From: Escherichia phage CMSTMSU
DNA length: 64,000 nucleotides
Strand: one strand, 5' to 3'
Sequence record: MH494197.1
Shown here: one piece after another, positions 31,419 to 61,744 of the stretch
Numbering within the stretch: the stretch's first letter is position 1
Layout: every line of letters starts with the position of its first letter
Made by a program: the position numbers and the translations under genes
The notes under the pieces: model-generated
Databases searched by the model: none
Seen by the model: only the letters and a program-made list of their open reading frames with translations
Told to the model about the DNA's origin: nothing

Positions 31419-31425
31419 CTACTTT

Positions 31426-32432: not shown

Positions 32433-32569
32433 ATATTTTCGATTCGATGAACGATCATACTGTTTTAACAGTGAGTTAAGAACGTAGTTGAAGTTAAATT
32501 CTTTGATTTCAACTTCTTTGCCGTTGTCAATGAAAAATATTTTCCTTTCATTACTAACCTCTTAATTAA

Positions 32570-34131: not shown

Positions 34132-34316
34132 TGCATACCACCTTGTTGTACATCATCAGATACTTCTACATCTAAATCAACATCTTCACCAGTAATTGGT
34201 TCATCTGATGGTTCTTGTGCATTCATAGGATTACTATTGAACTCTGAAGCCATTAGTTTGTATTCATCAAAACTTTCAGGGTTAATTAAGTTTCTAGGAA
34301 TTTGTACACGAACCAA
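34128..34316 (-). CDS. hypothetical acidic protein (62 aa)
   Basis: ORF from track; 4 nt overlap with downstream gene. Confidence 0.4.
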   Translation of the reverse strand: MVRVQIPRNLINPESFDEYKLMASEFNSNPMNAQEPSDEPITGEDVDLDVEVSDDVQQGGMQ

Positions 34317-34431
34317 TAGAACTGGAATTCGTTCATTTTTGGAATACGAACAGAACCAGATTGCGTTGCCACACTCTTCATATCAGCCTGACGGTTAGGA
34401 TCTTGAATAGGTGTAATTTCATAATCTGCTT

Positions 34432-34692
34432 TCACATATACCTTAGTTCCGTGCTTCTCAAGAATTGAGAATGCAGTAGGATCAGGAAATTCTCACGATA
34501 GTATTTGAATGTCACAGTACACCAGTACTTACTAACAATCGGACCTTCAACAAGTTCACCTTCGATAATACCATGATATGCGTACAAATCATTATCATCA
34601 AAATATTTTTCAACAGCCAGAAGTATATCAAGCATACCGCTGTTATCATACAACTGCTGGACTGCATTATCTGTATAATCTAAATCATCCAT
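34432..34692 (-). CDS. hypothetical protein (86 aa)
   Basis: ORF from track. Confidence 0.4.
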   Translation of the reverse strand: MDDLDYTDNAVQQLYDNSGMLDILLAVEKYFDDNDLYAYHGIIEGELVEGPIVSKYWCTVTFKYYRENFLILLHSQFLRSTELRYM

Positions 34693-34786
34693 GTTTTATA
34701 TTATCCTTAAAAACTAGCACATATAATACTATTTACTACTTTTAAAAACAATAAAGGGATTAAATAATCCCCATTGTTTTACTATA

Positions 34787-35411
34787 TTATTGGTAATATT
34801 TCGACAGTACTGAATAGATTTTCAAACGTAGTTCATCCCAGTTGTTAACATAGTCATACCCATAACCATTTTTATACATATGATTGTGGGACGCTCGCAT
34901 CATAACTGATGGGATACCCAATTCCATTGATGTTTCAATATTATTGATATAATCATCAATCATCAGTTTTACGTCATATCGTTCTTTTAATTCTACTAGT
35001 GCTTCATGCTTAGATTCATTCATTTCAACAATGATGATTTCATCAAAACATGTCTCACCAAATACATGCATAAGATTAGTATTGCGAAGTACCTCGCTAT
35101 AACCTTTCTTACCACACTTAGTCAGTACTATGAATTTTTCCTTGTAAAACGATCACGCAGTTCATGCATAATACTTACAGTGTTAGTTTCTACAGGTTTT
35201 AGTAATCCAAACATATACGAACGTTGATTGAATTCAGTAATGATCTCTTGAACTTTTTTCGTGAAACACCAAACCATTCGGATAAATCGTATGCGAGTGG
35301 GTATGGTGTTGTTGGGTTGATATCATATTGGAGTTTTGCGTATTCTCCTAATGAACCAATGTGATCTAGTAGTACTTCATCACAGTCGAATACAATACAA
35401 CGGTCTTTCAT
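34787..35411 (-). CDS. HAD-superfamily phosphatase, 5-prime(3-prime)-deoxyribonucleotidase-like; frameshifted
   Basis: N-terminal IVFDCDEVLLD (HAD motif I DxDxV) and C-terminal VKLMIDDY (motif IV) in two ORF fragments. Confidence 0.4.
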
Positions 35412-36362
35412 TACATGTTCCCCGAACAGATTAGGTCAATCTCACACAGTAATGCACTGAGATTCATTTCACGGTCAGACACAGTAGCTTGTTTAACAAC
35501 AGCGTCACGAATCTTAACCTTAATTTTCATTAGAGTAATTTCATCAGTACTGAACATTTCTGCATTACGATACAGATAAGAGAAGAATGCATCCATCTCA
35601 TCATCAGGAATGTTTTGCACGATCTGCTCACGCATTTGACGAATGTTACCAGCTTTTAGTGCATCAACAATGGCAGTACGATACCCAGCAGAGTTCTCAA
35701 TACTGTCTTCAAGTTTTACAAGTTTACCATCGACTACTGAACTTTGCAATACGTTTAGCGTTTTGCGGAAATCAGGATATGAAGCATTGATGTATTTTTG
35801 TACTTGTTCAATACTTTCATCAGTACTTAGATCTACTCCTTCTGCCAATAGTACGTTGTAGATGCGTGACATGAATTGTTCCATATCATGCTTCTCAATG
35901 GTGATGACCTGAACACGAGAGATAATAGGTTTCTGAATCTTATGTGGTTCATTACTGGTAAGAATGAAACGAGCATTTTCATGGTAATCTTCCATGACAC
36001 GTTTCAAGCTACCCTGTGCTTTGTGGTTCATTTGTTCCATTTCTTCCAGAACAAATACACGATAACGACCAAAACATGATAGTTTTGCTGCTGCGTCAAT
36101 TTTATCACGAACAGCATCGATACCTTCATCTGACATATTCAGTGTTGTTACATCACTAGGGTCAAGGTGTCCGTTAGCTTCCAGACCATTCAGTAGTACT
36201 TTGATTGCTGAAGTTTTACCTGTCCCTGCTGGTCCAAAAATCCAATATGTGGATATCACCAGTACGAATCCATTCTTCCATCTTCTGACGTAGGGCTTCG
36301 TTCTTAGATACATAATCTTCCATAGTTTGTGGGCGGTATTTTTCAGTCCATAATGTAGTCAT
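35411..36362 (-). CDS. 44: clamp-loader large subunit gp44-like AAA+ ATPase; one N-terminal frameshift
   Basis: Start MTTLWTEKYRPQTMEDYV then frame break at T5 run near 36245; Walker A GPAGTGKTS, Walker B VLEEMEQ, SRV sensor motif. Confidence 0.8.
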
Positions 36363-36441
36363 GTTTTATTTCCTTGTATATTAGGTGTTTATGAAATCCA
36401 ATCTGCATAATCATACAACAATGCAGTGAATAAGTCTTCTG

Positions 36442-36654
36442 TCATTTCAAGTTGATTAAACAAAAATTAAATGAGTTTGCTTTGTTCTTCACACCCATTG
36501 CTTCGGCCGGCTGATACGATAAGTAAGTACTTAAACATATCATGAGAAACTTCATATACGTACTTCGTGTTAGTTCTATCTTCAAACATAAATCGTCCAT
36601 TTTAGAAACTAACGTAACGTCAGAAAAACTATATTTTCCATCATCAGTTATCAT
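36442..36654 (-). CDS. hypothetical protein (70 aa)
   Basis: ORF from track. Confidence 0.35.
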   Translation of the reverse strand: MITDDGKYSFSDVTLVSKMDDLCLKIELTRSTYMKFLMICLSTYLSYQPAEAMGVKNKANSFNFCLINLK

Positions 36655-36709
36655 GTATTTTCATCCAAATAAAAGCCCAGATAATATATCCGAGCTTTAG
36701 ATTTATGTT

Positions 36710-37036
36710 TTAACGACCAAATGTTTGAGCAGAGATGCGTGGATCAGTGTCAGATACCAAACTTACTGCTGCTGGATAATCCACAAGATTCATTTTAATA
36801 CCATCAATCTCAATAGTTCTCGACCAACGACCGTGGTCAATTAGAATCCATTGTCCTTCTTTGATATCGGTAATGTCTTCACCAACAGAATATACTTTAG
36901 CCCAACGACAACGAATACCACGTATCTTACCATCATCACTTGTCAGTACAATTCCACCTGCGGTTTTACGCTCACCATGTTCTAGCTCAGTTACAATAAC
37001 TTTACCTTTACAAGCTGTCATTACTTTATTGGTCAT
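36710..37036 (-). CDS. co-chaperonin GroES-like (gp31-like)
   Basis: GKVIVTELEHGERKTAGGIVL matches GroES mobile-loop region; 108 aa. Confidence 0.5.
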   Translation of the reverse strand: MTNKVMTACKGKVIVTELEHGERKTAGGIVLTSDDGKIRGIRCRWAKVYSVGEDITDIKEGQWILIDHGRWSRTIEIDGIKMNLVDYPAAVSLVSDTDPRISAQTFGR

Positions 37037-37039
37037 GAA

Positions 37040-37384
37040 TTACTCCTGATCTTTAGTTTTTGCTCGGCGTGGAGCTTTCTTCTCTTCAGATACTTCAACT
37101 TCTGGTTCTTGTGGTTGAACTTCAAAGCTTTCATCATCCCATACTTCTTCAGTACTATATTCAGCACTGTGAAGTTGGTGTTCAGGAATGAAATCAGGAA
37201 TTTGCATTTCACGTTCTTTTTCTTGGATTAGTTCTTCACGGGTTTTAATGACCGTACCACCTGAACTAATCTTATCACCACGAGCATTTAGGTTTGCATT
37301 ACCTAGTGCTACTTGGTGCTGGTTTTGATACTTTAGCATATCCATATCAATGGTGGTTCCACGATAAGTTGTGTGTTTTGACAT
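37040..37384 (-). CDS. hypothetical protein with acidic C-terminal tail (114 aa)
   Basis: ORF from track. Confidence 0.45.
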   Translation of the reverse strand: MSKHTTYRGTTIDMDMLKYQNQHQVALGNANLNARGDKISSGGTVIKTREELIQEKEREMQIPDFIPEHQLHSAEYSTEEVWDDESFEVQPQEPEVEVSEEKKAPRRAKTKDQE

Positions 37385-38004
37385 ATAAAAATCCTTTTTC
37401 TATGTGAGTGATATAACGCCTCAAACAACATTATATCACATGTTTTTCTACCATTTCAAAAATTCATTTACATCTAGTTTATACTTCAAAGAATCAACCA
37501 TATGCAAATCAATCAGGAACAAACAATACGAAGCCACTGAACTACCACGCCCAAGACCCCAAAAATATTGTGCTCTTCCATATAATCAACTAACCAGATC
37601 ATACATCTTAAAAGCTTAGTCATGTTGTAATGTTCAAACAAATCAATCTCATACATTACACGTTCACGGGCTTCATCCGATGTACATTTCTGTAAAAGTA
37701 CTCACGCAAGTTGATGTTATCGTACACTGGATCATAACGCCATAGCTCATGGTTTTATCATGTTCTATTGTATAATCCAGCATACGCTGTTCTAAACCAA
37801 ATTTTTACAATTATCGTTAAATTTCAATCGTTCCGGTTCATCAATCTCCTGTAGCTGTAAGTACTGAATATCTGCACCACAGTTGATTGCATACACGACT
37901 GCATTAAGGTTACATTTTACATCACCATTGGGACTTATAAATCTGTTTCCTTGTACTTTCATTTTTCTTCTTCTGATCCTCTTCGTTATCCGTTAAGTAA
38001 GAGT

Positions 38005-38202
38005 TCATGTCAAATATACATGGGTCTTGTTCATCATAGGAGGTTTTTCTTTTTGTCCCTGACGAATCTCTAATTCAGCATAGCACTGATTCAGAACGGT
38101 TTGCATGTTACCAACAATCATATCACTCATACCTGCTGCACGAGCAGACGTAATACGCATCGATTGTTCGTTAATTTTCAATTGTAACTCTTTCTCGGTC
38201 AT
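38005..38202 (-). CDS. hypothetical protein (65 aa)
   Basis: ORF from track. Confidence 0.4.
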   Translation of the reverse strand: MTEKELQLKINEQSMRITSARAAGMSDMIVGNMQTVLNQCYAELEIRQGQKEKPPMMNKTHVYLT

Positions 38203-38232
38203 GGTTGATGGATCAAAAATGGATTGAACATA

Positions 38233-38457
38233 TCATCCTCCTAAATTGCTGTTTTGTAATGAAATCAAAAATGTATCATGAACGTAGTTTTCGAATTCAT
38301 GTGCAAAGAATCCAAACTCAACTCCTGTGATTTCAAACTCAACACCAACCATCTTACCATGTTCATTGTTCTGAAGTAAAGTGTTAAAGAATGCTTCGCC
38401 CTTTCCGTGCACAATATGCAACTGGAATGATTGGCATAAATTTCTTTTCAACTCCAT
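38233..38457 (-). CDS. hypothetical protein (74 aa)
   Basis: ORF from track. Confidence 0.4.
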   Translation of the reverse strand: MELKRNLCQSFQLHIVHGKGEAFFNTLLQNNEHGKMVGVEFEITGVEFGFFAHEFENYVHDTFLISLQNSNLGG

Positions 38458-38507
38458 TTTCTTCGTATGGGTGATTCATGAAGCGAGGAACAGTGTCAAG
38501 CATCTCA

Positions 38508-38786
38508 TCAGAAATTCCGTATAGCATCTACATACAAACCACGGTTCTGTAAATCAGTTGGGTCTTTCACAAGGTTAGTTGTGTCTTCGCCAATTGCTGC
38601 AAAAATATTTTGACGCAAGCCAAATATTTCACCGAGTGTTCCGTTATCAATTTGCGTGTAACTTCTTGGATTCTTAGAAACTGACACCAATGAACCTGCT
38701 GGTAAAACTTCACGGTATAATATATCATACTGCAAGTTACCTTGGTTGTCAAGTGCTGACATTACTTTATAGTTTCCCATTACCAT
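38508..38786 (-). CDS. hypothetical protein (92 aa)
   Basis: ORF from track. Confidence 0.4.
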   Translation of the reverse strand: MVMGNYKVMSALDNQGNLQYDILYREVLPAGSLVSVSKNPRSYTQIDNGTLGEIFGLRQNIFAAIGEDTTNLVKDPTDLQNRGLYVDAIRNF

Positions 38787-39161
38787 TCTAAATTTTCCAT
38801 CAGGTATAGTTGCACCAGTTTGGTTTATGATATTTTCCCTAAGTACTTTTTAATATCACTCAACGTAGTGTAAGTATAGTTCTGACTCAAAAGTTTTCTT
38901 TTAATAAAATACGTGGTACTTTTTGTAACCCGTATCTATCATCTGATTGACGATGGAAAGCTTGATTTGTAAATGATGGTGTACTAATACACTTAAACCA
39001 TTCACGTTCAAAATAAACAGAAGGTACAATATGTGCACTTAAGTAGTTTTGTCCAAAACCACGTACAATTTTAAGTTTAAATAACTTGGACGCAACACCA
39101 CCTTCAGTGTCATATGCTTTGATGTTGAATTCTAAATTTATATCATCATTTGCACTGAAAT

Positions 39162-40638
39162 CTAAACTTTTGCATATGCCGTCCCGACCAAGAACCCATC
39201 TGCGGTGAGGTCCAAACCATATTTGCGAATATCATCAGGTCCACCATCTAATACATAAGATACCTGATTAGTACTGGTAGTTTGTATTTGTGGATAAGTA
39301 CTGTGACCGAAATATTCACCCACATGAATACTACCTAAATCACTATCAGTTGTGAAGTCTATTGAGTTTCCTTCTTCTGCGTTCACTAGAACACGGAACA
39401 TCTTCTCTTCACCTATAATATTCTCACCTAAGCTTGAATCATAATATCCTAAATCAATCCAATCTGAACTTTTAAACACTGGCTTTGTTTCACCTAGATC
39501 ATATTCACCAGAGATTACATATGGATATACAACGTTATCTTTCAACTGATACAAATGATTAGGTAAAGGTTTATCACCATCAGCGTATATACCATCTACA
39601 TTGTCTGGACATACCCACATTTGATATGCTTTGAAACGTTGGTTTATAGCGAAGCGGTCAGTGTCATAACTATATGTACTCAAAATATCAACAATTTCAA
39701 CTTTGAAATATGCATCACATGCATCAGAGTCATATAGGAATGTTTGCAGAAATTGTCCATTTGGGTTGAAAACCAATCCTGAATCTAGTAACTCCCCAGA
39801 GCTAGTTTGAATATTAACCTTAATTTCTTTATTAATACCAAATACAGGCCATATATTATCAATAGGACGTAGGATTGCATAATCATCAGTAATGTGGCGA
39901 GCAGGAACTTCTGCTGGGGTCATATCGAGTAGACGATACGCTGGATAAAATACTCTAGGAGATAGGTCTGTTGATGTATCAGTTCCTAAAATAAATGGAC
40001 GACGGCGACCAAATCCCTGTACAAATAAAGTACTGTTGGAACCGTATTCAATATCGCCAATACAATATAATTTGTCATCATCACCGATTTCGATTCCGGA
40101 GTAACCCACACTTCCTGACTATCATATTCAATTGTTACTTCATTTGAACCAATTTCACCACTAGGGAAATGTTACCATAGTACATAACATTTACTGCTTG
40201 AAGATAAAAGTTAATCTGTTCAGAGTTGTTAAATGTACCATCATCTTTACAATGCAATTTAATAAAATAAACATCTTCGGTATTAGTGCTTGCCGATAGA
40301 TCAAATTGAGTTTTATCAATTTTACATTTGTGCTTACCATTAATCAACTTGTTACCAGTAATACCTGATGATATAGGTGTGAGATTAGATTCATCATTTC
40401 CAACATACACTGCGTAGTGATCTTCTGGTTGAAATACTGCATCAGAACTGTCCAAACCCTGAATAGTTAGAATCATCTCTAAGTATTCGTTTTCATTAAG
40501 TATATAACTATCATCCGTTGTGGTTTCTTTGTTGATACTCAAACGCACAAGAATGTCTTGTCCTTCTTGTATATATCGAGCATCGGCTTTTATATCCCAT
40601 CTAGGGTAAAAGTTGTCATTATAATTCTCCATAGCCAA
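39162..40638 (-). CDS. large hypothetical protein (about 490 aa, frame-interrupted)
   Basis: Fragments 40135-40638 and 39162-40109 collinear; may continue to about 38800. Confidence 0.45.
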
Positions 40639-40649
40639 GCTACCATTAT

Positions 40650-42119
40650 CTATAGATTATTTATATAAAGGACAAGGAAGACCCACAAAGGTCTTCCCTG
40701 TTTATAATCAATCTTCAGTTTTGGCGTGAAGTCAATCTTACGTAGTTCTTTCAACTCATCTTTATAGATGTTCCAAATCAAATCATGATTCGACAGGAGA
40801 TTGTTATATTCATCCATTAAATCCAAGTTATGTTGAATATCAGCTAGTACTGATTGATAATTGTCTTGGGTCCAACGATATGATGGGAAGTTTACGATGC
40901 TTTGAATATTCTCATCGGTTGCTTCGATTTCAGTGTTTAATGATTTAACAAACTCAACCATTTCTGAACGGTTAGCAAAACCCTTAACCTTAGCAATCAT
41001 ATCATTATCAAAACATTCTTTGATTAGAATCTTATAACGTACTTCAGCAGCACAATCATCAAGTTTCTTCTCATAGCGTTTCACATAGTATTTGAAACGG
41101 AATTCAACAAAGTCCTTAATCAAATCCATTGTGTTATCATAGACTTTAACCTTACCATTCTCACCTAGAACAGTTAGGATTTGTGTCATCTTCTTATGAA
41201 TGCCAAAGTATTCAATTACATCTTTCTCCACCCATTTAGCAGATGTTCCGCGTGGTAATTTGATTGTAATATCAATAACATCAGTACTATCATTATCATA
41301 ATCACGAATATCACCATCATCGCTCATCTTAATGAGTTTCTCGATGAATTTCTCAATACTGTAGTTAGGTGGTAGACCTGTTACTTTAACAGTACTGGCA
41401 TCAATTACTTGTGCTTTACCATAGAACTCATATTTGTTTTCATCAAGCTTAGTTACGATATCACTTGCACCACATGAAACATAGTATGGAGTCATTTCTT
41501 TTAATGGTTTTTATCAATAGCACGAATACAGTTATCAATAACATCTTCAATCTTATGTGGTAGAATTGTACTCTTATAACCTACTGACATACTATCGTTA
41601 CCAAACAAAGATAGTGGGATAATAGGTAAAAAGAAACTTGGTTCCATTGTAGTACCATCATAGTTCTCTTTCATTGGAATAATGTCAGAGTCACGCAGTA
41701 CTAACATTTCAGTACTTTTATTCTTTTAACATAAGTATAACGAGCAGAAGCTGGAGTACTGTTTACTTGTGTACCAAAACCACCACGTTTACCAATGAGT
41801 GGGTAGTTGTTTACTACTGGTGATGCTAGGTTCTGGAGAGTTCCAGATGCAGATGTATCACCGTGTAGATAGATACCATCACTAATCATTTTACCAGCAC
41901 ATGATACAGTTTTGATTTCACCACTAACTTTTGAGAGGGTGAAGATTGCTTTACGTTGTGAACTCTTAAGGCCATCAATCCCGGGATTGCACGGTCTAGT
42001 GTGTACATTGAATATTCTAGTGATGTGGTATTCACATAATCAGAACTGTTATAATCTAGTAGAGTTAGTGTTTGGTTATCGATGCTTTGATTTTCGGTTT
42101 TTACTTTTAGCCATTCCAT
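40650..42119 (-). CDS. 52: DNA topoisomerase II medium subunit gp52 (GyrA-like); at least 3 frameshifts
   Basis: Four fragments; LEYSMYTLDRAIPGL, ASARYTYV, FFLPIIPLSLFGNDSMSVGYKSTILPH and GKVKVYDNTMDLIKDFVEFR match recalled T4 gp52; hairpin at 40676-40703 may mark true 3-prime end. Confidence 0.8.
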
Positions 42120-42162
42120 TGTCTCTTTGTAAAGGGAACACCATGTTCCCCATTAATCTATA

Positions 42163-44122
42163 TTATTCCATCCAGTTCTTACGATCATCAGCACGTTTCT
42201 TGTTGAAAATCAAATCAAGAGTTTCACCAAGGCGACCATCATCTGTAATCGCTACTGCAACACTGTTAGTGAATGCATCACGGAAGTTTGCTTTTTCTAA
42301 CGTACCCAATCCTTTCGCACGGGTTGCTTTCCAACCTTTCCAATCATCTGGGTTGTATTCATGTACATCATGACCATAGTAGTACTTGGATTCCTTACCT
42401 TTCTCTAGAATGATGAATGGTGTTTTGAATATATACACAAATGGATTCTCTGGGTCTTGGAATAGTTCAGGCCAGAATTTGTATAGGAAGTTACATACTA
42501 AAGCACCAATGTTCTTTCCATCCTCATCTTCGTCGGCACAGATATAAAGCTTACCATAGTTAAGGTCTGCTCTTTCCGCTTTTACACGGAATCAGGTTGA
42601 TACTCGCCATTATATCATGCAATGCCATTGAATCCATTAATTCTTTGGTTTTCTCATTACCACTGACGTTCATAATTTTACCACGCAATGGTAGAATACC
42701 ATGAACTTTAGGATCACGAGCACTCGCCATGTTGGAAATAGCAGAATCACCCTCAGCAATTAGTAGGATGCATTTGGAACGATCCGTACCTGTACTGTCC
42801 AATAGTTTTGCAACTTTACCTTTCAGTAGTTTTTAGCTAGACGGCGATCTTCTTCTGCATCTTTCTTGTTGGTACGAGCAGCACAGCGTTCAAAAATTTC
42901 ATCAATCCACTCTTTGTTCTTCTTGACTAATTCATCGAACCATTCAGAATTCATCGCTTGTTGAATTGGACGAATAACGTTTTCGTTGGTTAGTTTTGAT
43001 TTAATCTGTGAGTTGAATGATGGTGCTTTCATCGTTGTTACGTTATAAATCAACAGACCTTCTTCAATATCAGAGCGGTTAGGTTTCATCTTGCGTTTCT
43101 TTGATTCTTTCTCTAGAGCAGTTCCTACTCCTAATGAGAAGAATTTCTTGAATGTATCAAGATGTGTACCACCATCAAATGCTGGGGCATTGTTAACCAA
43201 ACCATGCATATGGAAGTTATTGTTCATACCCGATACTGCATTAGGAACAATGTAGAAAGTACTGTTAAAGTTGAATGATTCATCTTTAACGTTCAATTGC
43301 ATCAGTTTAGATGCGTTGAATAGTGCTTTTTCGGTAGTTCCTTTAATTGCAATACGCTTACCGTTAAGGAAAATCTTATAGGTAGGGTTAGCAGCAGACA
43401 TTTCTTTCAAAATACTGTATAGCAATTCGGTTGGTAGTTTACGGTTCGGAAATACCTCAGAACTCAAAGTGAAGCGAATTGTTGTTCCAGTCTTATCTGC
43501 TTGAACCTTACGAATAGTTGGTTCATGTACATGAAGTTCAGGAAACATAATAGTTCCTTCTTCGAACTTCTGATTGAACTTATAAAACCGTCATAACCGT
43601 CATTGCTACTTTGTGTTTTATACGGGCGACCTTGGCGATGGATTTCAAGTTCAGCTTTAGAACTTACAATCATTGCAACTGAACCACCCAAACCATTCTG
43701 ACCGATTGTTTCATCACGCTTCGAATCATCAAAGTTACGACCAGTTTTAGTTTCAGTCATTACCATTGTACATAGGTTTTTCTGATACTCAGGAACATAG
43801 TCAATTGGAATACCACGTCCATTATCACTGATCTCAAAGGATAACTCTTCCTCATTGAAATCAACTTTGAGTACTGGCTCTTTTGTACCAGCTTTTTAAA
43901 TTCATCTAAGCTGTTATCGATAATTTCACGAGTAGCAGTTAGAATTGCAGGAACCCACTCAACGTTTTTAACTTCATATCCAGACTCACCAAAGATCAGT
44001 ACTTGACTTTCGTGAACAGAACGTGAACCCAGATACATCTCAGTACGCAAGCGAGCATGTTGATAATCGTTTAGACGTTGTACATCATGTTCCTGAAGAA
44101 CAGCACTTTCTTTCTTAGCCAT
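42163..44122 (-). CDS. 39: DNA topoisomerase II large subunit gp39 (GyrB-like ATPase/Toprim, probably fused gp39+gp60); at least 4 frameshifts
   Basis: Five collinear fragments; GHKL N-box EIIDNSLDE, Toprim LIAEGDSA and PLRGKIMNV; start MAKKESAVLQ with AAAGGA Shine-Dalgarno. Confidence 0.85.
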
Positions 44123-44182
44123 TTGAATTCCTTTTAATGTCTCTTTGTCATGCAACATTGTATCATCAATGCTTTGTTTGTC

Positions 44183-44212
44183 TCAAAAATATCGGGACAT
44201 TAAATGCCCCGA
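44183..44212 (-). terminator. rho-independent terminator
   Basis: Hairpin tcgggaca-ttaaa-tgccccga followed on minus RNA by UUUUUGAG. Confidence 0.5.
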
Positions 44213-44218
44213 CAATTA

Positions 44219-45010
44219 TTATTTTACCAGAAGTAATTGTAATTCAGCACTAGGACTAAATTCATCATCACTCCAGTACTTGTGAACCTTCTCTGGACTA
44301 GCCTTAGCCAGTACTTCACCACCACCAACAATGTAGACTTGGTGTGAACCAATCAAACGGGTCCAGAATTTAATTGCATCATCAGTGTGAAGACTGTCGC
44401 TTAGTACTTTAATACCATGAGCAACCATATCCATAAAGATATTATAGATGATACCTTTAGTACCAGTTTTGGAGGCCGTAGCAGCAATCTCAAACACTTG
44501 TGGTACACCTACCACCGCATCATTAGACAAATGTCCACTAACGATAGCAAGCTGTTTACCAGCCTTATCATATGCAATAAACCCAGTACCATTCTTATTC
44601 ATAAACACATCATAATCTTTGTGTTCTGCGAACTTGACCATGTTGTGCTTACCTGTCATCTCGGCAGTTTTATCAACGAACTCATCACGGTCTTGGCCTT
44701 GGAAACTATCGAAACGTTGTGGCATTTCTTCCAATTTCTCTTTATGTTCTTCTTCACATGAATCCATTATATCACTAGTTCTGTCTTCTGTATCAGCTAA
44801 TTCTGCATCTTGTACAATATCAACCAAACCACGCATACTAGATTCTTTTACCTTATTAGGGAGTTTTGAACCTTTCTTAAGATTTCCCGCTTTTCGTCGG
44901 CGGCATTCCACTCTTTAGCTGCACTTTGTGAAATCCCTGCTTTTTGGCGAATTCAGGATTATGGCAGCAGCAGCGAAGAATTTCGCTTGGCTTTTACTTT
45001 TACTTGGCAT
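44219..45010 (-). CDS. hypothetical protein (about 260 aa, N-terminal frameshifts)
   Basis: ORF 44219-44911 plus upstream MPSKSKSQAKFFAAAA segment in another frame. Confidence 0.45.
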
Positions 45011-45058
45011 TATAAACTCCTAACTCTCTTCTCATCTTAACAATTGAGATATCTTGAT

Positions 45059-45715
<657 letters not shown>

Positions 45716-45728
45716 TTATATAAAGTAC

Positions 45729-46539
<811 letters not shown>

Positions 46540-46563
46540 TTAATGATAGACTCCTGTAATTGA

Positions 46564-47147
<584 letters not shown>

Positions 47148-47176
47148 CTAATCTTGGAGTTTTAGGTTATATACTG

Positions 47177-47737
<561 letters not shown>

Positions 47738-47763
47738 TTACTTTGACAGTACAGGTTACCTTT

Positions 47764-48233
47764 TTACCCGAATTCAACTTTCTGGACATACGTTACGTTA
47801 CCCAAACGACGAACGAATGATTCCATTGCATCAACGTTGTTTTGGATAACAGTTGCGTTTGTGCCGCGACCTGTAGTTTTCATTACAATGTGTACTTGCT
47901 TACCTTCTTCTAAGAACTTACCTGCACTTTTCGCTTTAATAAGCAAATCATGCTCTTGAGTTCCGAAGTTGAATTGAATCTCTTTAGTACTAACAGTGTT
48001 TTGACGCTGTTTCTTCAAAGAGGCTTTTTCAGCCTGTTTCAATTCGTATTTGAATTTGTTCAGATCAGTGATTTTAACAGCAGGTTCATCACCTGCTCCA
48101 ATAACCACCAAATCCAGACCTTCAGTTTCTGCTAAAGCAAGTGCTTTAGAGATTGCCATGACTTCACTTTTACCTTCCGTAACTAGACGGACAGTTTTGC
48201 GGTGATTTCGTTATTGGCAATAATAGATTTCAT
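47764..48233 (-). CDS. infC: translation initiation factor IF-3 homolog; one N-terminal frameshift
   Basis: NNEITAKTVRLV, LAETEGLDLVVIGAGDEPAVKITD, NKFKYE, TKEIQFNFGTQEHD and FLEEGKQV align with recalled E. coli IF3 N- and C-domains. Confidence 0.75.
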
Positions 48234-48256
48234 GTAATAAAAGCTCCGATATGGTT

Positions 48257-48496
48257 TTAATGTTCAATTCGATAGTAATTATAGCTAAGAACTAATGTTC
48301 TGTCAAGCACTATCATTATGTTTTTAATTGCTTCACAGATTGCTTGAACTTGCACTAGATAAGTTTTAGCAAACTCTGCTTGAGTACGCACACGTGGATT
48401 TGGTGCGTCTTTGATCATAAGTTCTAAATCATAAACTACTTTATCGAAAACACCCTTGTCTTCAATAATACGATCATAAAAGGTTTTGTCAGTCAT
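48257..48496 (-). CDS. hypothetical protein (79 aa)
   Basis: ORF from track. Confidence 0.45.
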   Translation of the reverse strand: MTDKTFYDRIIEDKGVFDKVVYDLELMIKDAPNPRVRTQAEFAKTYLVQVQAICEAIKNIMIVLDRTLVLSYNYYRIEH

Positions 48497-48519
48497 GTCA
48501 AGAACTCCATGTGGTTAAA

Positions 48520-49107
48520 TTATAATTTTACGTAAGAAACTACAGCAGCATCAGTTACAGAAGGTACGTTTAAGTACACATTCTCGTACTCAATGAAATC
48601 AACAGTGGTAGTAGATAGTGCATCTTTAACACGTTGGATTGTTTTCTGTACAGAAATTTCTTGATTCTCAATTGCATTAGTACCATCACCTTTAAGTGAT
48701 TCGTTTAACAATTCTTGAATAACTTCTGCTGCTTTAGCAGTTTTAAGATCAACAGTGGTTAGTGCAGCTTGTTCTTCAACGCTTAGAGTGCTTAGGAATG
48801 GCTCGTAGCTGATATAACCCACATTGATGGTTGCACCAGTTGGAATAGTTGCTGCTGTGCGGGTAGCAAATTCAACAGTACAATACACTGGGACAGAATA
48901 AGTTGATAGTAGGCGTGTAACCTGTAGGTAACGTAGTAGTGCTACAGACTTGTCAATTGTTTGTTGGTCGGTTGGTGCAGTTGTTGGGGAAGATGAATCA
49001 TAATCTTCATACATATAATAAGGAATATTATCTAGATTTGTCCCTGCAACTTCAATTTTGAATACTTGTAGTAAATTGTTCATTGTATATTCTTCTCCAT
49101 AATACAA
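48520..49107 (-). CDS. hypothetical protein (195 aa)
   Basis: ORF from track. Confidence 0.5.
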   Translation of the reverse strand: MYYGEEYTMNNLLQVFKIEVAGTNLDNIPYYMYEDYDSSSPTTAPTDQQTIDKSVALLRYLQVTRLLSTYSVPVYCTVEFATRTAATIPTGATINVGYISYEPFLSTLSVEEQAALTTVDLKTAKAAEVIQELLNESLKGDGTNAIENQEISVQKTIQRVKDALSTTTVDFIEYENVYLNVPSVTDAAVVSYVKL

Positions 49108-49361
49108 AACACTTTTGATTATTTATTGTTAAGAATCAAAATTATTTATGTATATCATTTAGTCTATTAGAATCGTGCATTCTGACGCAACATAACATTG
49201 TAACGCGGTCGTGTCATAGCAGTGTATAGGATTCTGCATTTTGTATCGTTAGTTCCGATACGCTCAATAAAATCAGTATCAAACCAGATGTTATCGAATG
49301 TACTTCCTTGTGATTTGTGAACAGTTGTTGCATAAGGATAGTTGATAATATGTAATTTGTT

Positions 49362-50501
49362 TTAATCACATAGTAATCTTGCCACATATATGGTTTCTTT
49401 GTCAATGGGTTGATTTCTTTTTCTCAATGTTTTAACTAGTTCATCGAGTTTAGCTTCCATTGCAATTCTCGTTTCTGGTCCTACACCTAAGATGTAGCTA
49501 CCATTTGGTAAACGGAATTGCCAACAATCAATACCCATGAAACTTTCGGTTTTCACATCAGGACATTGGATGATTTGCTGAACCACATATGGACTGTTCT
49601 CAGTGATGCTTTCAAAGACAATCGGTTCACCTTTTGTGAATTCCTCTGGTACTTCAAACAATTGGCTACGAATGTAGATGTTAGCCAAGTTCACACGGTA
49701 GTTGGTGTATGCCAAGATTTTATTTTCATTAACAAAATCAAATATCTTCTTAGCTGAACCTTTGTTCTCCATAATGAATTCACGGTAAACTTCCAAGAAA
49801 AGATCTTCATCTTCAATTGGTGTAATAGTACTCAGACCATGTGTCTGGTGCATAATATCAAACGGGTTCTTGGAAGTACCTATGCACTCGCGGATTGCAG
49901 TTGCAATTGCAAGTATAGGGTTATCCAACGCTTGACGTAAAACTTCTGTTAATTCATATTGTACTGGAACATCAAAAGTAGGGGAAAGCTTAGTTTCTCC
50001 TATTGTTCCTTCTGATTCAACTGGAGGCAACTGACAGCGATCACCGATGAATAAAACCGCTCGGCGAACACGCCACAATTGATCCTGAATGTGTTGAAAC
50101 AGTTCTTCTGAAATCATACTACATTCATCGACAATTAGAATATCAACATTAGTATTACTAACTTTACTTTGTGGGTCATGCTTCAGTACTTGACGATTCT
50201 TTTCATATACTAGTTTTAAACCTAGAAATGAGTGAATAGTACTAACCTGTGCATCTTCTTTAGTTAACCCAGCATTGTTGATTAGCATATTGCGAATAAC
50301 AGAGTTTGCCTTGTGTGTTGGCGATGTTACTGCAATATTGTAATTTTACATAGTGCTTTAACAATCTCAGCAGTAGTGAATGTTTTACCTGTACCGCTGG
50401 TGCTGACAGTACTGATATAGTTTTACCTGCATAATTATAAACACGATCTACAAAATTATCAAAATTTCTTGTTGCTTATCCGTAAGCTTAATTTTACTCA
50501 T
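49362..50501 (-). CDS. dda: Dda-like SF1B DNA helicase (RecD-like); about 3 N-terminal frameshifts
   Basis: Walker A GTGKTF after frame correction, Walker B IVDECSM, SF1 motifs; start MSKIKLTDKQQEIL with GAGGGAA Shine-Dalgarno. Confidence 0.75.
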
Positions 50502-50526
50502 CGTTCCCTCGACTGATTATTACACT

Positions 50527-51819
<1,293 letters not shown>

Positions 51820-51841
51820 TTATTACTTTAACTCCATATAA

Positions 51842-53338
<1,497 letters not shown>

Positions 53339-53340
53339 AA

Positions 53341-54395
<1,055 letters not shown>

Positions 54396-54522
54396 TTAAG
54401 TGTTCGATTGGTTCTTTTCACATTCGACTTAGGAAAATTCTCATTAATTTTAGACAATATATACTGCATCATCAATACCTCAATTATTTGCGGTTTGCTT
54501 TTTAGACTTATTAGCCATTTTA

Positions 54523-54741
<219 letters not shown>

Positions 54742-54990
54742 TCATTATAGCACAGTTCTGGTGTTTGTCCTAAATTTTATTCGGTTGGTACAAACATGAC
54801 AATGTGTGCCTGAACAACTCTAGTACCATCTACCAGCACAAGACCATTTGGACAAACATCAGATACTGCACCAGTCACCTTAAATCCACCAGTTAGGTAG
54901 AAGTCATAGATAACATTACGCTCAATTGTAAAAATATCACTCATATAAATTCCATAAGAAAGGGATTCATAGAATCCTGTTAGTTTTATT

Positions 54991-56110
54991 TTATAGTTTA
55001 AATGGCGAGAATGTATCTCCTTGGATATCATTCACAATACCACCAATGATATAAGAACTGATTTCAGTTTCTTGTGGTGCTACCTGTACAGAACTACCAC
55101 TTACCCAGTGTTCAGTCCACGGTAGTGGGTTACTCTTGGATACAGTATATGGACATTTGATACCAAGTGCCGTCATACGCTTAGAACCAATCCATCGGAC
55201 ATACTGTTTAAGAATTTCAGAGTTCAATCCAATAATAGAACCATCTTTAAAGAGGAAATCTGCCCATGCTTCTTCTTGGCGAATAGCAGACATAAACATT
55301 TCCAGTACTTCATCATAGCACTCTTCGGCAATTTTTACCATATCTGGATCTTCTTTCTTTAGAAGACGTAAAATCATTTGTGTTGCTGCGAGATGAAGGT
55401 TTTCATCACGACAAATTAGACGAATAATCTTTGCATTACCTTCCATGAGGTTGTTCTCTGCAAATGCCCATGAACAAGCAAAACTAGCATAAAACGAACA
55501 CCTTCAAGAATGTTAATACTATTCAAACATAACCATAGTTTTTCTTTAGATCATACATATTAATTTCAATAGTTTTACCATTAACAGTATGAGTGCCTTC
55601 ACCTAATGCACGATACAATGTTCCTAGTTCATCAAGGTCATCATAGTATTTTGAAATATCAGCAGCACAATCAGTGATTTCTGAAATGTCCAACATAGTA
55701 TCAAAAACTTCAGATGGATTAGGATAAATGTTACGAATAATATGTGTATATGATTTACTATGAATAGCACCTTCAAAGAACGCCCATGTTTCAATAAAGT
55801 TTTCAAGTTCAGGTAGAGATGCATATGGAAGTAGCATTAGATTAGGACCACGACCTTGAACTGAATCAAGAAGGATTTGACGTTTTAAGTTTGATGTAAA
55901 GATATGCTTCTCAGAATCATTGAGGTTAGCAAAATCAATTTTATCTTTAGATACGTCAACTTCACCGTGTCCAGAAGAAACTTTTCTGTTGTTCAGTTAG
56001 TTTTTCAAGTGTAGAGTATTTGTTACTTTCAAAGCGTTGAATATCAACACTTTCATCAAAAACATATTCTTTTCTAGGTGAGACTTCTCATTAATTTTGA
56101 AAACTGACAT
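54991..56110 (-). CDS. nrdB: ribonucleotide reductase class Ia beta subunit NrdB; at least 2 frameshifts
   Basis: Start MSVFKINEKSHLEKNMFF; TWAFFEGAIHSKSYTHIIRN and MEGNAKIIRLICRDENLHL iron-ligand motifs; length fits intron-less nrdB. Confidence 0.9.
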
Positions 56111-56160
56111 ATATATTCCTTTATATTTGGAAAGATTAATCCGCCGAAGCGGATCTTTAA

Positions 56161-58442
56161 TTAGATCTTACAACTATCACAATCACCTTCATCTAAGTCA
56201 GGTAGTGTAGGTAACACAAACTGTCCAGATTCTGGTTTTGCAGCTTCTTTTAGTACTTTCTCAACATCCACTTCATCAGAACCATCATTAGTATTATGAT
56301 AGTACAGATTTTTCAAACCAACTTTGTATGCATACATTAGTTCAGTTAGTAGTGTTGACATTGGCAACTTACCATCAGGAAGTGTGCTGGATTGTAACTG
56401 GTATTCACACTAATACTTTGGTCAATGTATTTCTGAAGAACACCACAGATTTGTAGATAACCGATGTTATCTTTCTGATCCCATAGTAAATCATATTTGT
56501 TTTTCAACTTATTGATTTCAGGAACGACTTGTTTAAGAATACCATCTTTAGATAGTTTCTTAGTTACAAGTGAACGAGGTTTCTCAATACCATTAGTACT
56601 GTTACTGATTTGTGCACTAGTTTCTGCTGGCATCAGTGCCATAGTTGTTGCGTTACGAATACCATATTGTTTGATATCCTGACGCAATGTTTCCCAATCT
56701 TGTTTTAGTTCAGGAGATACCAACGCATCAATATCTTCTTTATAGGTATCAATTGGTAGAATACCTTTAGCATATTTTAGTGTGTCAAAACCTTCACACT
56801 TACCTTTCTCTTTAGCAAGCTGTACAGAAGATTTAATTAGATAATAAGACCATGCTTCAGCCCACTCGTTAACTGTTTCCAATGCAGCTTCATTGTAACG
56901 CAAACCACGTTTAGCAAGGAAGTATGCAAAGTTAATGATACCAACACCTAATGGGCGATACATTTTAGTTGCACGGTCAGCATGAACTACTGGGTAGTCT
57001 TGATAATCCAATAGAGAATCAAGAGCACGTACAGAAAGATCACATGCAGTTTCCATATCTTCTGGACGATCAAAGTTGCCCCAGTTGATTGCACTCAAAG
57101 TACATAGACTAATCAAACCTTCACCAGTATTAATATCATCAAATGGCACAGATGGTAGTGCGATTTCTTGACACAAGTTGGATTGTTCAATTGGTGCAAT
57201 TGATTCAATAAAGGTTGAGTGTGTGTTTGCATGGTCAATGTTTTGAATATAGATACGACCAGTTTCTGCACGCTCAGTCATTAGAGTACTGAATACTTCA
57301 ACAGCAGATACAGATTTTTACGAATGCTTGGGTCAGCTTCATACTTCTTGTATAGCTTTTCAAATTCTTTTGGTTAGAACAGAATGCTTCATATAGTCCG
57401 GAACTTCATTAGGACTAAAGAATGTAATATTCTTGCCATCAACTAAACGTTGATATAGTGTTTTGTTCACTTGGAAACAATAGTCAAGTTGTCGAACACG
57501 GTTGAACTCAGTGCCTTTGTTATTTTTCAGTACTACAAGATTGTCAAATTCCAAATGCCACAATGGGAAGTGGACGGTTGCTGCACCACCACGTACACCA
57601 CCTTGAGAGCAGCTTTTAACGGTCTTAGCAGTTGATGCAATGAAAGGAATCAAACCAGTGTGTACTGCATCACCTGAACGAATCTCGAGTCCAGAGCACG
57701 AATGCGGCCCATATTGATACCAAGTCCAGCTTTACGGGAAATATAACGTAGGATAGCGTGGTTAGAAGAACCAATACTATCTAGACTATCTCCAACGTTT
57801 AGTACTACACAAGAACTAAACTGACGTGTATTGGTACGTAGACCAGCCATGATAGGAGTCGGGAGACTGATATCAAAGTTACTAACAGCATCATAAAACT
57901 TCTTAACATAAGACATACGTACAGAGCGATCATACTCCATAAAGATGATTGCTGCAATGGTCATATATGCCATTTGTGGAGTTTCGTAGATTTTCTTAGT
58001 TACGCGATTCTTATATAGATACTTTCCTTCCCACTGACGCATAGCAACATAAGTGAATTTATCATCACGTTTATGTTTGATGTAACGTCCAAGCTCTTCA
58101 ATTTCTTGAAGTGTGTATTTCTCAAGAATTTCTGGATCATAGATTTTTGTATCTACCATTTCTTGTAGATGTGCAGTGTATTTGATAGGGTCATAGTCGC
58201 CATACACTTGCTTACGGATACTATAATTTAGTAAGCGACCAGCAACGTATTGGTAGTTTGGTGTATCTTCAGAAATAAGTTCTGCTGCTGATTTAATCAG
58301 AATATCATGAATAGTATTGGTTTCAATACCTTCAAAGAATTGAAGTTGTGCACGAATTTCAATTTCGGAAACAGATACACCACTCAGCCCTTCGGCAGCA
58401 AAAATAAAATTTGATGGATCTTATCCAAAGATAACGGTTCTT
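56161..58442 (-). CDS. nrdA: ribonucleotide reductase class Ia alpha subunit NrdA; at least 5 frameshifts
   Basis: Start MINVTKRNGKK; four collinear fragments, long stretches align with recalled E. coli NrdA (FSPNEVP, RIYIQNIDHANTHS, GVGIINFAYFLAKRG, LMPAETSAQISNSTNGIE, C-terminal CDSCKI). Confidence 0.9.
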
Positions 58443-58519
58443 TTTTCCATTACGCTTGGTTACGTTAATCATGTGTCATCCTTGTTATTTTGTTTATACA
58501 GTTCTTAAATTTTGTGGAA

Positions 58520-58541
58520 GAAAAAGGCGGGACGCCTTTTA
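58520..58541 (-). terminator. possible terminator hairpin overlapping stop codon
   Basis: aaaaggcg-gga-cgcctttt inverted repeat; U-tract weak. Confidence 0.3.
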
Positions 58542-59119
58542 AGGTTTGTCCCACCCACGATATACAAATTCTATGTGGTATCCTGAATTTAAATAATCCG
58601 CATTAACTATGTCAAATTGCATATTTCCAGTACTTGAATCATAAACTGGATTACTAAACAGAATAGATAAAATTGCATCAGTACGACTTGTGTTATTCGA
58701 CTGTGCAATCATTGTTGAAGAACCAGCAGCAACAATTTGCACTGTACCTGATTCTAAAATAGTCTCATTGCTATTATACGCGATGTAGTCGATGAATACA
58801 CGACTTTCACTTTCAATAATAACTTCAACACTCTCTTGGTTTTGTGGAATGTCTACTTCAAATGGACGGTTGATGATTTTTGATACCGTTCTCCACGGTG
58901 AGAATTCGGTAATTATTTCCACGTTCTCTTTACCAGAGTTTGGATCAGTTTCCATGTACGCCCAGCAACTAAGCTTGCTGGGTCTGATGAGGAAGGTAGG
59001 CCGATGAATACACGACCCACATCAGTACTGAATCCTATCTGGCCTTTTTCCAACGCGTCTGGTAAGTCACGTTGCTTACCAGTTCTTACTTGCTGTAACG
59101 CAATTTGTTGTTGTGCCAT
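58539..59119 (-). CDS. hypothetical protein (about 190 aa, one frameshift)
   Basis: Fragments 58913-59119 and 58539-58955 collinear. Confidence 0.45.
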
Positions 59120-59276
59120 AAAACTATCTCCTATAGTATTATAGGATTATTTAGCGTTTTCTTTAACTTCAGCAATACGCTCATTGATTAGTTGAGATAC
59201 AACAGAGCTATCAACGGAAGAAAGAATTGATTCAGGAACTAGGGATTTCAAGTGTTTTACATAGTTTGCAACACTT

Positions 59277-59789
59277 TTAGTTCTTTGGTTTTAGTGCTTC
59301 TTTGATAATATCCAAATCTTCTTTTGAAGCTTCAACACGTTCAATAACAACAACGTCTTCTTCTTCAACAACAGGTGCTAGTTCTTCAGCGATTACTTGT
59401 ACTTCTTCAGATACTTTAATTTGTTCTTCAGTATCTACTACATATGATTCGATTACTTCTGGTGCAACATTACGAGATACTTCGTCAACACTAATATCTT
59501 CAGCAATTTTCTCTTTGATTACTTCTACTGGTTTTGCACCGCGAGATTTATAATCTTTAATATTAACTAAAAGTTTATTTGAAAGTTGTAGTTTGTCAAT
59601 TTCTTCATCACTTAGTTTGATTACTTCATCTAAGGAGTAGCCTTTACTTTCTAGTGCACGAATTGTATATAGGTCTTGTTTCATTTGTTTATGCTGTTCC
59701 ATTTGATTCAATTTCTCCACGTAAAATATAGTATTGCTCAACTCTACCAATCCACATATCAACCGCATCTTTGAAGTCTTGTCCTTCAA
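59277..59789 (-). CDS. hypothetical protein with acidic C-terminal region
   Basis: ORF 170 aa (true start probably internal Met). Confidence 0.4.
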   Translation of the reverse strand: MKDKTSKMRLICGLVELSNTIFYVEKLNQMEQHKQMKQDLYTIRALESKGYSLDEVIKLSDEEIDKLQLSNKLLVNIKDYKSRGAKPVEVIKEKIAEDISVDEVSRNVAPEVIESYVVDTEEQIKVSEEVQVIAEELAPVVEEEDVVVIERVEASKEDLDIIKEALKPKN

Positions 59790-60420
59790 TAACGAATTCT
59801 TGATATTGTAAATTGTTAGGATCTTTTCTTACACAGATGAAAATTACACCACGCTCAATATTTGTTCCAAACATTTGATTATGCGATAGTGCATATGCAG
59901 CGATTTGCATACGGTAATTTTCGATATGTTCCCATGTCTTTAATTTACGGGAATTCTTATAGTCCATGATAGAAGGAATCCATCATGAACCCCAACTAAG
60001 TCAGTTGTTCCAGCCCATAATCCTTCATAGAATAAAGGAACTTCCTGACCCACACTTCATTGATTCTAGGCCATGCTTCTTCTTGAATTTTGTCAGCCAT
60101 TTTACGTGCCAGAACTCGTATCGGCATACCACCTTGGTGGTCAGGCTTTCCATCCAGACGATATTCTAAGTTCTCGTGCATAAAAGTACCAACAGTACAT
60201 GCTTCTAATGTAATCTCATTAGCTTTCTCTTCACCAACAAATTCTCTCCATTTTTCAACCCCTCATTGTCAGAGGTGGCACTAAGAATTGTTGTTACTGA
60301 CGGCAGATTCCTGTTGGAGTTGAATAAAGGCGACCTTCGGGGCCGCCTTCAATTCTTTGTAATCAACGTATGTATATCTGCTAACAATTGGTGGTGTGTA
60401 CATCCGTGTACTCCTAATTA
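59689..60420 (-). CDS. hypothetical protein, possible PD-(D/E)xK-type nuclease (frame-interrupted), tentative
   Basis: Fragments 59996-60181 and 59689-59967 plus upstream segment; nuclease call is weak. Confidence 0.25.
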
Positions 60421-60851
60421 TAGCATCGTATTTTTGTTTGTCTCAGTTTTATTGCTTATTTGCTGCAACAGCAGCTTTTGTTGCCAATCTTCAACTTGGT
60501 CTTCAGAGTTCTGTTCAACTTCACCAGTACTTTCTGAATCATTACCAGTAAATGTTACAACATCCGAATTCGCATCTTGCACAAATGGCAAAGAGTTTAG
60601 AATATCCATCATAACATTATAAGGAACATCAATGTTGGTTCGCTTTTGATTTCAGCGATTAAAGATTGTAGGTTCACTTCTTCGCGACCCGATGATACTA
60701 AAGACAACGCAATAGTAGTAATCATATTGCGTATGTCTTTACCGAGCCTCTTCTGTAAGATCTTGAAATCTCATTTAGATTCATCCTTAATTATTTTTAA
60801 CGTATCCTAGTACACGTTTAACTTTCTTCTCGTTCTCAGATAGCCAAGTTT

Positions 60852-61400
60852 TCATTTCTTCTTTGTTTTGAAGAATTTAGTACCTACAGTACCGCGAACA
60901 CTTTCCATCTTAATACCAATTTGAGTTGGTTTTACAGATTCTTTCATTTCACGTTCAGTTGGTACTGGCTCAGAAATAATATCTTCTTCGAAATCAGCAT
61001 CAGCACCCATGTCGAACGTTGGGGTGTCAGCAGCAATGTCGATATCAACATCTTCACTACCAATATCAGAAACTGCTGGACCATCAGTGATATCACCAGT
61101 TAGTTTTAAAGTTTCAGTACTGATTTTGTCTTTAACATCCATTAGAGTAGTAACTGCATGTTGAAGTAGGTGGCGAACGCTATCACTAAAGTTCTGTGCA
61201 GCATCAAGACCTTGTTCCGCTTTGATACGGTCAAGTAGTGGGCCTAGAACGTCAACGCCCATGTTGTTGATTACTTCAGACTGACGTTGTAGTTTGTCAA
61301 CGATTTCACCTTTAACAGAGAGAACGATTTCAGCTTTCTCAATATTAGATTCGTTCAATTTGATGAACTTCATTGCTTCAACACGTGAAGCAGATTCCAT
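60852..61400 (-). CDS. hypothetical protein (182 aa), acidic
   Basis: ORF from track. Confidence 0.5.
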   Translation of the reverse strand: MESASRVEAMKFIKLNESNIEKAEIVLSVKGEIVDKLQRQSEVINNMGVDVLGPLLDRIKAEQGLDAAQNFSDSVRHLLQHAVTTLMDVKDKISTETLKLTGDITDGPAVSDIGSEDVDIDIAADTPTFDMGADADFEEDIISEPVPTEREMKESVKPTQIGIKMESVRGTVGTKFFKTKKK

Positions 61401-61453
61401 TAGTTTTTGTAGTTAGACATTTGAATTTCCTTATAAAATATCACTAAATTTAT

Positions 61454-61744
61454 TTACTTTATATAACCTTCACTCTTTAGAAAGTTCAGTACACGCTCTT
61501 TGAGTTTGTATGCTTCAGCTTTCTTTTCAGCGATGATGATATCTAAATCTTTTGCTTCATCGTACTTCGACTCATTCAGAACACGTTGACGTTTCTGTGC
61601 AGCCTTCAATGCTTCGGTAATTACATTGGTGTATTGTAAACCGGAACTGATGATACCAAGAACTTTTGCATCTGTCAACATTCTTCCTTCGTTGAGAAGG
61701 TTTACTAGTGTTAGTGCAGCTTCATACATCATAATATTATTCAT
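61454..61744 (-). CDS. hypothetical protein (96 aa)
   Basis: ORF from track. Confidence 0.45.
   Translation of the reverse strand: MNNIMMYEAALTLVNLLNEGRMLTDAKVLGIISSGLQYTNVITEALKAAQKRQRVLNESKYDEAKDLDIIIAEKKAEAYKLKERVLNFLKSEGYIK

Follow-up and report, generated by a model that had tools for sequence, protein, structure and literature searches.

Initiation factor IF3 decides which start sites the ribosome accepts, which makes a virus with an initiation factor of its own interesting in principle, and several reports have dealt with such viruses. Phage CBB encodes an IF-3, with homologues in GAP32, 121Q, PBECO4 and Rak2 (PMC5259590, 2017), IF1 and IF3 have been counted among the genes by which huge phages would redirect host translation (Al-Shayeb et al. 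2020, PMC7162821), and IF3 has been included among the translation genes of jumbo phages (Iyer et al. 2021, PMC7824862). The paper on phage Sharanji treats a direct orthologue of the gene analyzed here, and says that no definitive statement can be made about its function in phages (PMC11895373, 2025). Both Turkey3 and 121Q annotate the gene as "translation initiation factor IF-3", and our literature search found no experimental work on any phage IF3. The phage IF3 gene is thus already known, being annotated throughout the Rak2/121Q group and covered in papers from 2017 to 2025.

The DNA analyzed here, referred to as the window, is a 64,000-nucleotide stretch of Escherichia phage CMSTMSU (MH494197.1), and positions are counted from its first letter. 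Over 2.2 kb around the IF3 gene it shares 98.6% DNA identity with Escherichia phage Turkey3, 97-98% with eight further coliphages of 350-385 kb, and about 85% with 121Q, PBECO4, slurp01, Sharanji and other Asteriusvirus members. By sequence, the source genome is Asteriusvirus-like, a jumbo coliphage of the Rak2/121Q type. The original prediction had taken the setting to be that of a T4-type phage, in which IF3 is not known to be a standard gene; it is instead the setting of the Rak2/121Q group, where the gene is standard and has long been annotated. The features needed to follow the reading of the gene are these:

47733..48233, minus strand: infC-like gene for translation initiation factor IF3, 167 aa after repair of two assembly deletions
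48195..48198, minus strand: A4 homopolymer (A5 in Turkey3), at which the frame breaks after codon 13, giving a TAG at 48185..48183
47764..47770, minus strand: 2-base deletion in a CCAGG (Dcm-type) motif, turning TTC CAG GGT into TTC GGG TAA

Nucleotide alignment to the intact Turkey3 and 121Q genes, profile searches, and an AlphaFold2 model searched with Foldseek identified the minus strand of 47733..48233 as a two-domain IF3 gene. It starts at an ATG (48233..48231, minus strand), and the TAA that ends the frame of the relatives has its equivalent in the window at 47735..47733, which gives a length of 501 nt against 504 nt (167 aa) in Turkey3 and 121Q. As written, the frame that opens at 48233 reads MKSIIANNEITAK and then meets the TAG after 16 codons, and a mechanical ORF lying one base out of phase (47764..48159, minus strand, 131 aa) continues ...TVRLVTEGKSEVMAISKALALAETEGLDLVVIG... 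The original prediction, an IF3 homologue of about 155 aa at 47764-48233, had the start right and described a product that is IF3-like; its 3' end at 47764 is an artefact, the gene reaching 47733, and its product had been obtained by silently joining two frames at the A4 run, the real one having 167 aa.

That shorter reconstruction already scored above the Pfam gathering thresholds for both domains (IF3_N 3.8e-16, 59.5 bits; IF3_C 8.1e-11, 42.2 bits). The repaired protein matched PF05198 IF3_N with 59.3 bits (cut-off 26.9 bits) through its residues 7-71, aligned to positions 2-69 of the 70 in the profile, and PF00707 IF3_C with 46.5 bits (cut-off 34.8 bits), the match covering profile positions 2-84 of 86 once the 3' deletion was mended. 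It also reached 1e-28 and 100.3 bits with the NCBIfam model infC (TIGR00168.2), which is of the equivalog type and has a cut-off of 60 bits. Because both Pfam domains and TIGR00168 are well over their cut-offs, the likeness to IF3 is far beyond chance. The top sequence matches in the PDB were full-length IF3 chains, namely 8jsg_A (180 residues, 1.7e-16), which we take to be E. coli IF3, followed by 5me0_Y (3.4e-16) and 5lmn_X (8.7e-16), of 171 residues each, and the scores against these three were about equal (61.5-63.8 bits).

The structural comparison agreed with the profiles. The AlphaFold2 model, built on a database protein (P0001) that is 99% identical to the repaired window protein, had a mean pLDDT of 82.8 and comprised a beta-alpha-beta N-domain, a long linker helix (residues 58-80) and an alpha/beta C-domain. 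All 22 Foldseek matches in the PDB at E <= 0.001 were bacterial or mitochondrial IF3, with the C-domain superimposing on 1tig (TM 0.82, 2.0 A) and the N-domain on 6o6d (TM 0.82, 1.9 A) and 1tif (TM 0.75). The window gene is a phage-encoded IF3 homologue in which the N- and C-terminal domains are both present, and on this point the original prediction was borne out by profile search and fold alike.

The interrupted frame lends itself to a biological reading, in which the gene is a decaying IF3 pseudogene or is decoded by a programmed -1 frameshift on the A-AAA-C run, comparable to that of prfB (RF2), and in the window as written the first 13 codons are connected to the remainder only through a -1 shift at 48195..48198. 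However, Turkey3 has five A residues at the equivalent position, the IF3 frame is uninterrupted in all relatives examined, and a second deletion, at the CCAGG site, truncates the same gene. This second deletion, of CCAGG to CGG between 47770 and 47769, creates a false stop at 47766..47764 that costs the last 12 residues of the C-domain, and in nucleotide alignment the two deletions make up the whole indel difference of the IF3 gene between the window and Turkey3.

The same pattern was found well beyond the gene. Comparison with Turkey3 over 33 kb (30775..63813) gave 151 indels, all of them deletions in the window and none an insertion, with 113 located in homopolymers and 22 at CCWGG (135 together); CCWGG sites number zero in the 64-kb window versus 24 in 34 kb of Turkey3. 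Across the compared stretch, 36 of 44 Turkey3 genes are frameshifted in the window, essential replication genes among them, and the list includes ribonucleotide reductase, both gyrase subunits and the Dda helicase. One-sided deletions in homopolymers and at Dcm-methylated sites are the signature of an unpolished long-read assembly. A viable phage could not have such widespread breaks; the pattern points to errors in the assembly, and because the window holds 151 one-sided deletions and 36 of 44 broken genes while its relatives are intact, the break in the IF3 frame is likewise an artefact. Errors of sequencing or assembly account for the broken frame and the short C-terminus; a pseudogene or a frameshift at the A-run is effectively excluded by the A5 of Turkey3, the intact relatives and the deletion pattern, and we leave it only a very slim chance. 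The boundaries of the IF3 gene are now corrected, and the window has to be regarded as an error-rich assembly in which any split gene, frameshift or short ORF is to be distrusted, probably across its whole length.

Two further observations came from the alignment with Turkey3. A DNA cytosine methyltransferase is annotated in that phage (record 281036-281896), which by offset corresponds to about 18800..19650 of the window, and CCWGG methylation made by the phage or its host would fit systematic base-calling deletions at CCWGG. A Turkey3 segment of about 790 bp (7720-8506 of the extracted Turkey3 region) is absent from the window at 56124..56135; it includes a hypothetical ORF of 257 aa, placed between the alpha and beta genes of ribonucleotide reductase, and may be a mobile insertion in Turkey3, for example a homing-endonuclease-type element.

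A tblastn search found IF3 matches in 96 phage records, 83 of which gave a single-piece match covering at least 80% of the query in an intact frame of 165-169 aa. Intact copies span Asteriusvirus, Alcyoneusvirus (RaK2, K64-1), Eneladusvirus (fHe-Yen9-04, Serratia BF), Mimasvirus (XbC2), CBB, Munch and further phages, and the named orthologues include 121Q gp47 (YP_009101641), RaK2 ORF153 (YP_007007308), CBB_318, Sharanji WNN14575 and Turkey3 XMR01311, in addition to those of PBECO4 and of GAP32, which we take to be a Mimasvirus member. Protein identity to the window copy is 98% for Turkey3, 89% for 121Q, 68% for RaK2, and 50-58% for Eneladusvirus and Mimasvirus. The genes of this group share with the window gene a length of 165-169 aa, the neighbours, the ATG start and the position of the promoter, and the window copy differs from the Rak2/121Q type only by the two assembly deletions and a few substitutions. 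Pairwise dN/dS of IF3 across genera was 0.08-0.23, so the phage gene is under purifying selection. Remoter copies were detected by tblastn in Vibrio phage 2.275.O, Agrobacterium phage Atu_ph07 and uncultured huge phages; these are phage-borne and full-length too, but only 33-36% identical.

The order RNase H, Dda helicase, two small ORFs, IF3, ClpS-like gene, KTSC-domain gene and structural gene was the same in all Rak2-like genomes inspected, and the IF3 gene order is conserved in Asteriusvirus, Alcyoneusvirus, Eneladusvirus, Mimasvirus and a Vibrio jumbo phage, that is, in at least five lineages. The immediate downstream neighbour in the window is:

47177..47719, minus strand: ClpS-like gene, 181 aa, frameshifted in the window, starting 13 nt after the IF3 stop

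This gene is probably co-transcribed with IF3. Relatives carry it under the annotation 'ATP-dependent Clp protease adaptor ClpS', which looks weak for this sequence, the Pfam ClpS model giving 17.1 bits, with a cut-off of 23, over 36 of the 181 residues. In Vibrio phage 2.275.O a bS21 gene stands directly after IF3 and before the ClpS-like gene (2015-2260 of the extracted locus). In Atu_ph07 the IF3 gene adjoins a Clp ATPase subunit gene (173-1432 of the extracted locus), and in huge phages unrelated to one another IF3 is thus found repeatedly next to Clp-related or ribosomal genes.

An IF3 gene in a phage sequence might also have come from the host, as an infC on a contig that is chimeric or contaminated. 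The assignment to the IF3 family would suit this origin, as would one database cluster, P0005, which is labelled 'Escherichia coli'. Nevertheless, the phage protein is only 31% identical to E. coli IF3 and is no closer to it than to two other full-length IF3 sequences of the PDB, its flanking genes are phage genes whose order is conserved in more than 80 jumbo-phage genomes, and no rpmI-rplT follows it. The synteny and the low identity rule out host contamination, which we consider vanishingly improbable, so the check proposed with the original prediction came out in favour of a genuine phage gene. As for cluster P0005, its IF3 is 73% identical to the phage protein and bears the NCBI label 'translation initiation factor IF-3 [Escherichia coli]', but its contig of 358,987 bp has the size of a jumbo-phage genome and looks like one deposited inside an E. 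coli assembly.

Compared with bacterial IF3 (InfC, E. coli P0A707; PDB 8jsg, 5lmn, 1tif/1tig), the phage protein has the same two domains and the same long lysine-rich linker helix, but it lacks the first nine or so residues and its linker is two residues longer. The genetic context differs as well. Cellular infC starts with AUU and lies in an infC-rpmI-rplT operon with an L20-type leader, whereas the phage gene starts with ATG, is followed by the ClpS-like and KTSC-domain genes, and has no leader RNA. Its expression signals in the window are the following:

48278..48306, minus strand: predicted sigma-70-type promoter, TTGACA-17 nt-TATAAT (12/12), 44 nt upstream of the IF3 ATG
48244..48247, minus strand: GGAG Shine-Dalgarno, 10 nt before the IF3 ATG

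A promoter-like site was found at the matching position in five other genomes, among them 121Q (12/12), fHe-Yen9-04 (TTGACA-16-TATCAT, 11/12), RaK2 (TTTACT-17-TATAAT, 10/12) and XbC2 (TTGACG-17-TACCAT, 9/12). The number of promoter-like matches in the 4.5-kb scanned region was not above that of shuffles (20 vs 19.6), and it is therefore the perfect match and the conserved position, and only these, that argue for the IF3 promoter. The ATG and a GGAG about 10 nt before it were present in the window, Turkey3, 121Q, RaK2, Yen9-04 and XbC2 (6/6). The autoregulatory AUU start, for which the original prediction had suggested looking, was thus found neither in the window nor in any of the five relatives examined. 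A regulatory leader RNA was also rejected: no Rfam family matched 47000..49200 at E <= 1 save two chance-level hits, and the leader is unstructured, less structured in fact than shuffled sequence (fold z-score +1.57).

These signals suggest that IF3 would be transcribed by the host RNA polymerase and translated efficiently without regulation, probably early in infection; a literature search for transcriptome or timing data on Rak2-like phages returned nothing usable. A second near-consensus sigma-70 promoter (TTGACA-17-TATGAT, 11/12) lies at 48473..48501 on the minus strand, a short way upstream of the small ORF in front of IF3, and the region may contain several host-type promoters in tandem.

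The residues of the protein were then compared, in E. coli IF3 numbering, with those of its bacterial counterpart. The linker Y75 together with D106, K110, G132 and R133 is shared with E. coli IF3 and is invariant or nearly so in the alignment of the phage clade, and positions 112, 116, 129 and 168, which are basic in E. coli, stay Lys or Arg. The role of the linker Y75 has been described (PMC7145577), and the phage residue aligned with it, Y63, is Tyr in 164 and Phe in 16 of 180 homologues. On the other hand, two sites differ throughout the phage clade. R99-P100 is replaced by N, T, S or A followed by F, Y, C, S or A. The 129-RFRGR-133 loop, which in E. coli IF3 is the loop that touches the start codon, reads K-T-T-G-R in the window protein and K/R-x-[T/S/A/V/I/Q]-G-R in all 23 Rak2-like cluster representatives, one of which has His in place of R133, so that a basic residue at 131 is missing. 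No gap interrupts the alignment between FLEEG and GR. RFRGR is highly conserved in bacteria (PMC11775629), but it is not a formal criterion of the IF3 family, and the phage protein passes the infC equivalog model.

Of the 150 library representatives closest to the phage protein, the top 25 included 15 with a non-basic residue at 131, vs about 10% further out, and a wider set of IF3-like library proteins, possibly from phages, shows the same degenerate motif. The remoter phage proteins differ in this respect, that of Atu_ph07 keeping R99-P100 and RFKGR and that of Vibrio phage 2.275.O having RLHGR. The loss of R131 and R99 in the Rak2/121Q clade is a feature that we did not find described elsewhere, and it may be new.

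Replacement of the residue that contacts the start codon has precedents in mammalian mitochondrial IF3 (KKGK), in mycoplasma IF3 (R131 to P, F or Y) and in the E. coli mutant R131P. The R131P change in E. coli infC makes discrimination less strict for start codons, leaderless mRNAs and initiator tRNAs alike; natural substitutions in the RFRGR motif are present in mycoplasmas and mitochondria, and in the systems with an altered motif starts other than AUG, mRNAs without a leader or unusual initiator tRNAs are tolerated (PMC11775629). By this analogy the absence of R131 suggests altered proofreading, and a protein without R99 and R131 might bind or act differently, although the parallel with mitochondrial, mycoplasma and R131P IF3 is a lead and not a finding. 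Unlike those systems, the phage genes examined use ATG and a Shine-Dalgarno sequence, and no unusual initiator tRNA was found.

A phage need for a relaxed IF3 was sought in 34 kb of Turkey3 and rejected there as far as unusual starts and leaderless genes are concerned: all 44 annotated genes start with ATG and 40 of the 44 have an SD-like core, both counts being dependent on the gene caller. A link to a phage initiator tRNA was rejected as well, the candidate being:

6632..6708, minus strand: tRNA of 77 nt with anticodon CAT, found by ARAGORN and below the gathering score of the Rfam tRNA model

Because its G1:C72 end is paired, this tRNA is not an initiator. Turkey3 has a tRNA-Met of different sequence at the corresponding place, and the window tRNA could belong to the elongator Met or the lysidine-type Ile class, with possible damage from assembly errors.

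Taken as a specific proposal, the IF3 of the Rak2/121Q clade would be a natural fidelity variant, which has lost R131 and R99, has kept the rest of the 30S-binding surface, and, by loading early on 30S subunits, would change the stringency or the kinetics of start-site selection toward phage messages. This proposal is rather unlikely in our estimation, and we put it forward tentatively.

The same residues allow a different reading, in which the phage protein is an IF3 mimic acting as an antagonist that would occupy the IF3 site on the host 30S subunit and would not support normal proofreading or initiation on host mRNAs, contributing to host shut-off or ribosome reprogramming instead of supplying more IF3 activity. 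It would be consistent with the Rak2-like clade being devoid of R99 and R131 while the C-domain residues elsewhere remain conserved and basic, with the enrichment of the loss of a basic 131 in the nearest relatives, with a strong host-type promoter, which fits an early take-over function, and with the orthologue beside a phage bS21 gene in the Vibrio jumbo phage, which suggests a ribosome-modifying module. However, purifying selection has kept the linker Tyr, K110, G132-R133 and both folds, as expected of a working IF3, the phage sequence bears no sign of loss of function, and mitochondrial IF3 works with KKGK instead of RFRGR (PMC11775629). We judge the antagonist distinctly improbable.

We therefore return to the reading of the gene as a jumbo-phage orthologue of bacterial IF3 (121Q gp47, RaK2 ORF153, CBB_318), functional and vertically inherited as a core gene of the Rak2/121Q group, whose product would join the host 30S subunit and sustain or bias initiation in the infected cell, and whose break in the window is an error, and we hold this reading with high confidence. 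Its mode of action is proposed as follows. The host RNA polymerase would read IF3 from the strong sigma-70 promoter of the gene itself, probably early, and translation would be directed by the GGAG and ATG. We infer that the C-domain would then bind the host 30S subunit in the manner of cellular IF3, with retention of the linker tyrosine and the N-domain. The host IF3 pool would thereby be enlarged or replaced, leaving 30S subunits free and competent for initiation on phage mRNA. As a last and speculative step, with R131 and R99 lost, the phage IF3 may proofread start sites in a way unlike that of host IF3. A bias of initiation toward phage mRNAs, which the original prediction had envisaged, is likewise speculation, as it is in published work.

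Two leads emerge for the biology of these phages, the conserved consensus host-type promoter before IF3 and the clade-wide loss of R131 and R99. If the second of them holds experimentally, the phage IF3 would become a tool for the study of start-codon proofreading and would offer a concrete mechanism of translational take-over. Among viruses, a fidelity-variant phage IF3 would then, if true, correspond to the IF3 variants of mycoplasmas, mitochondria and E. coli R131P.
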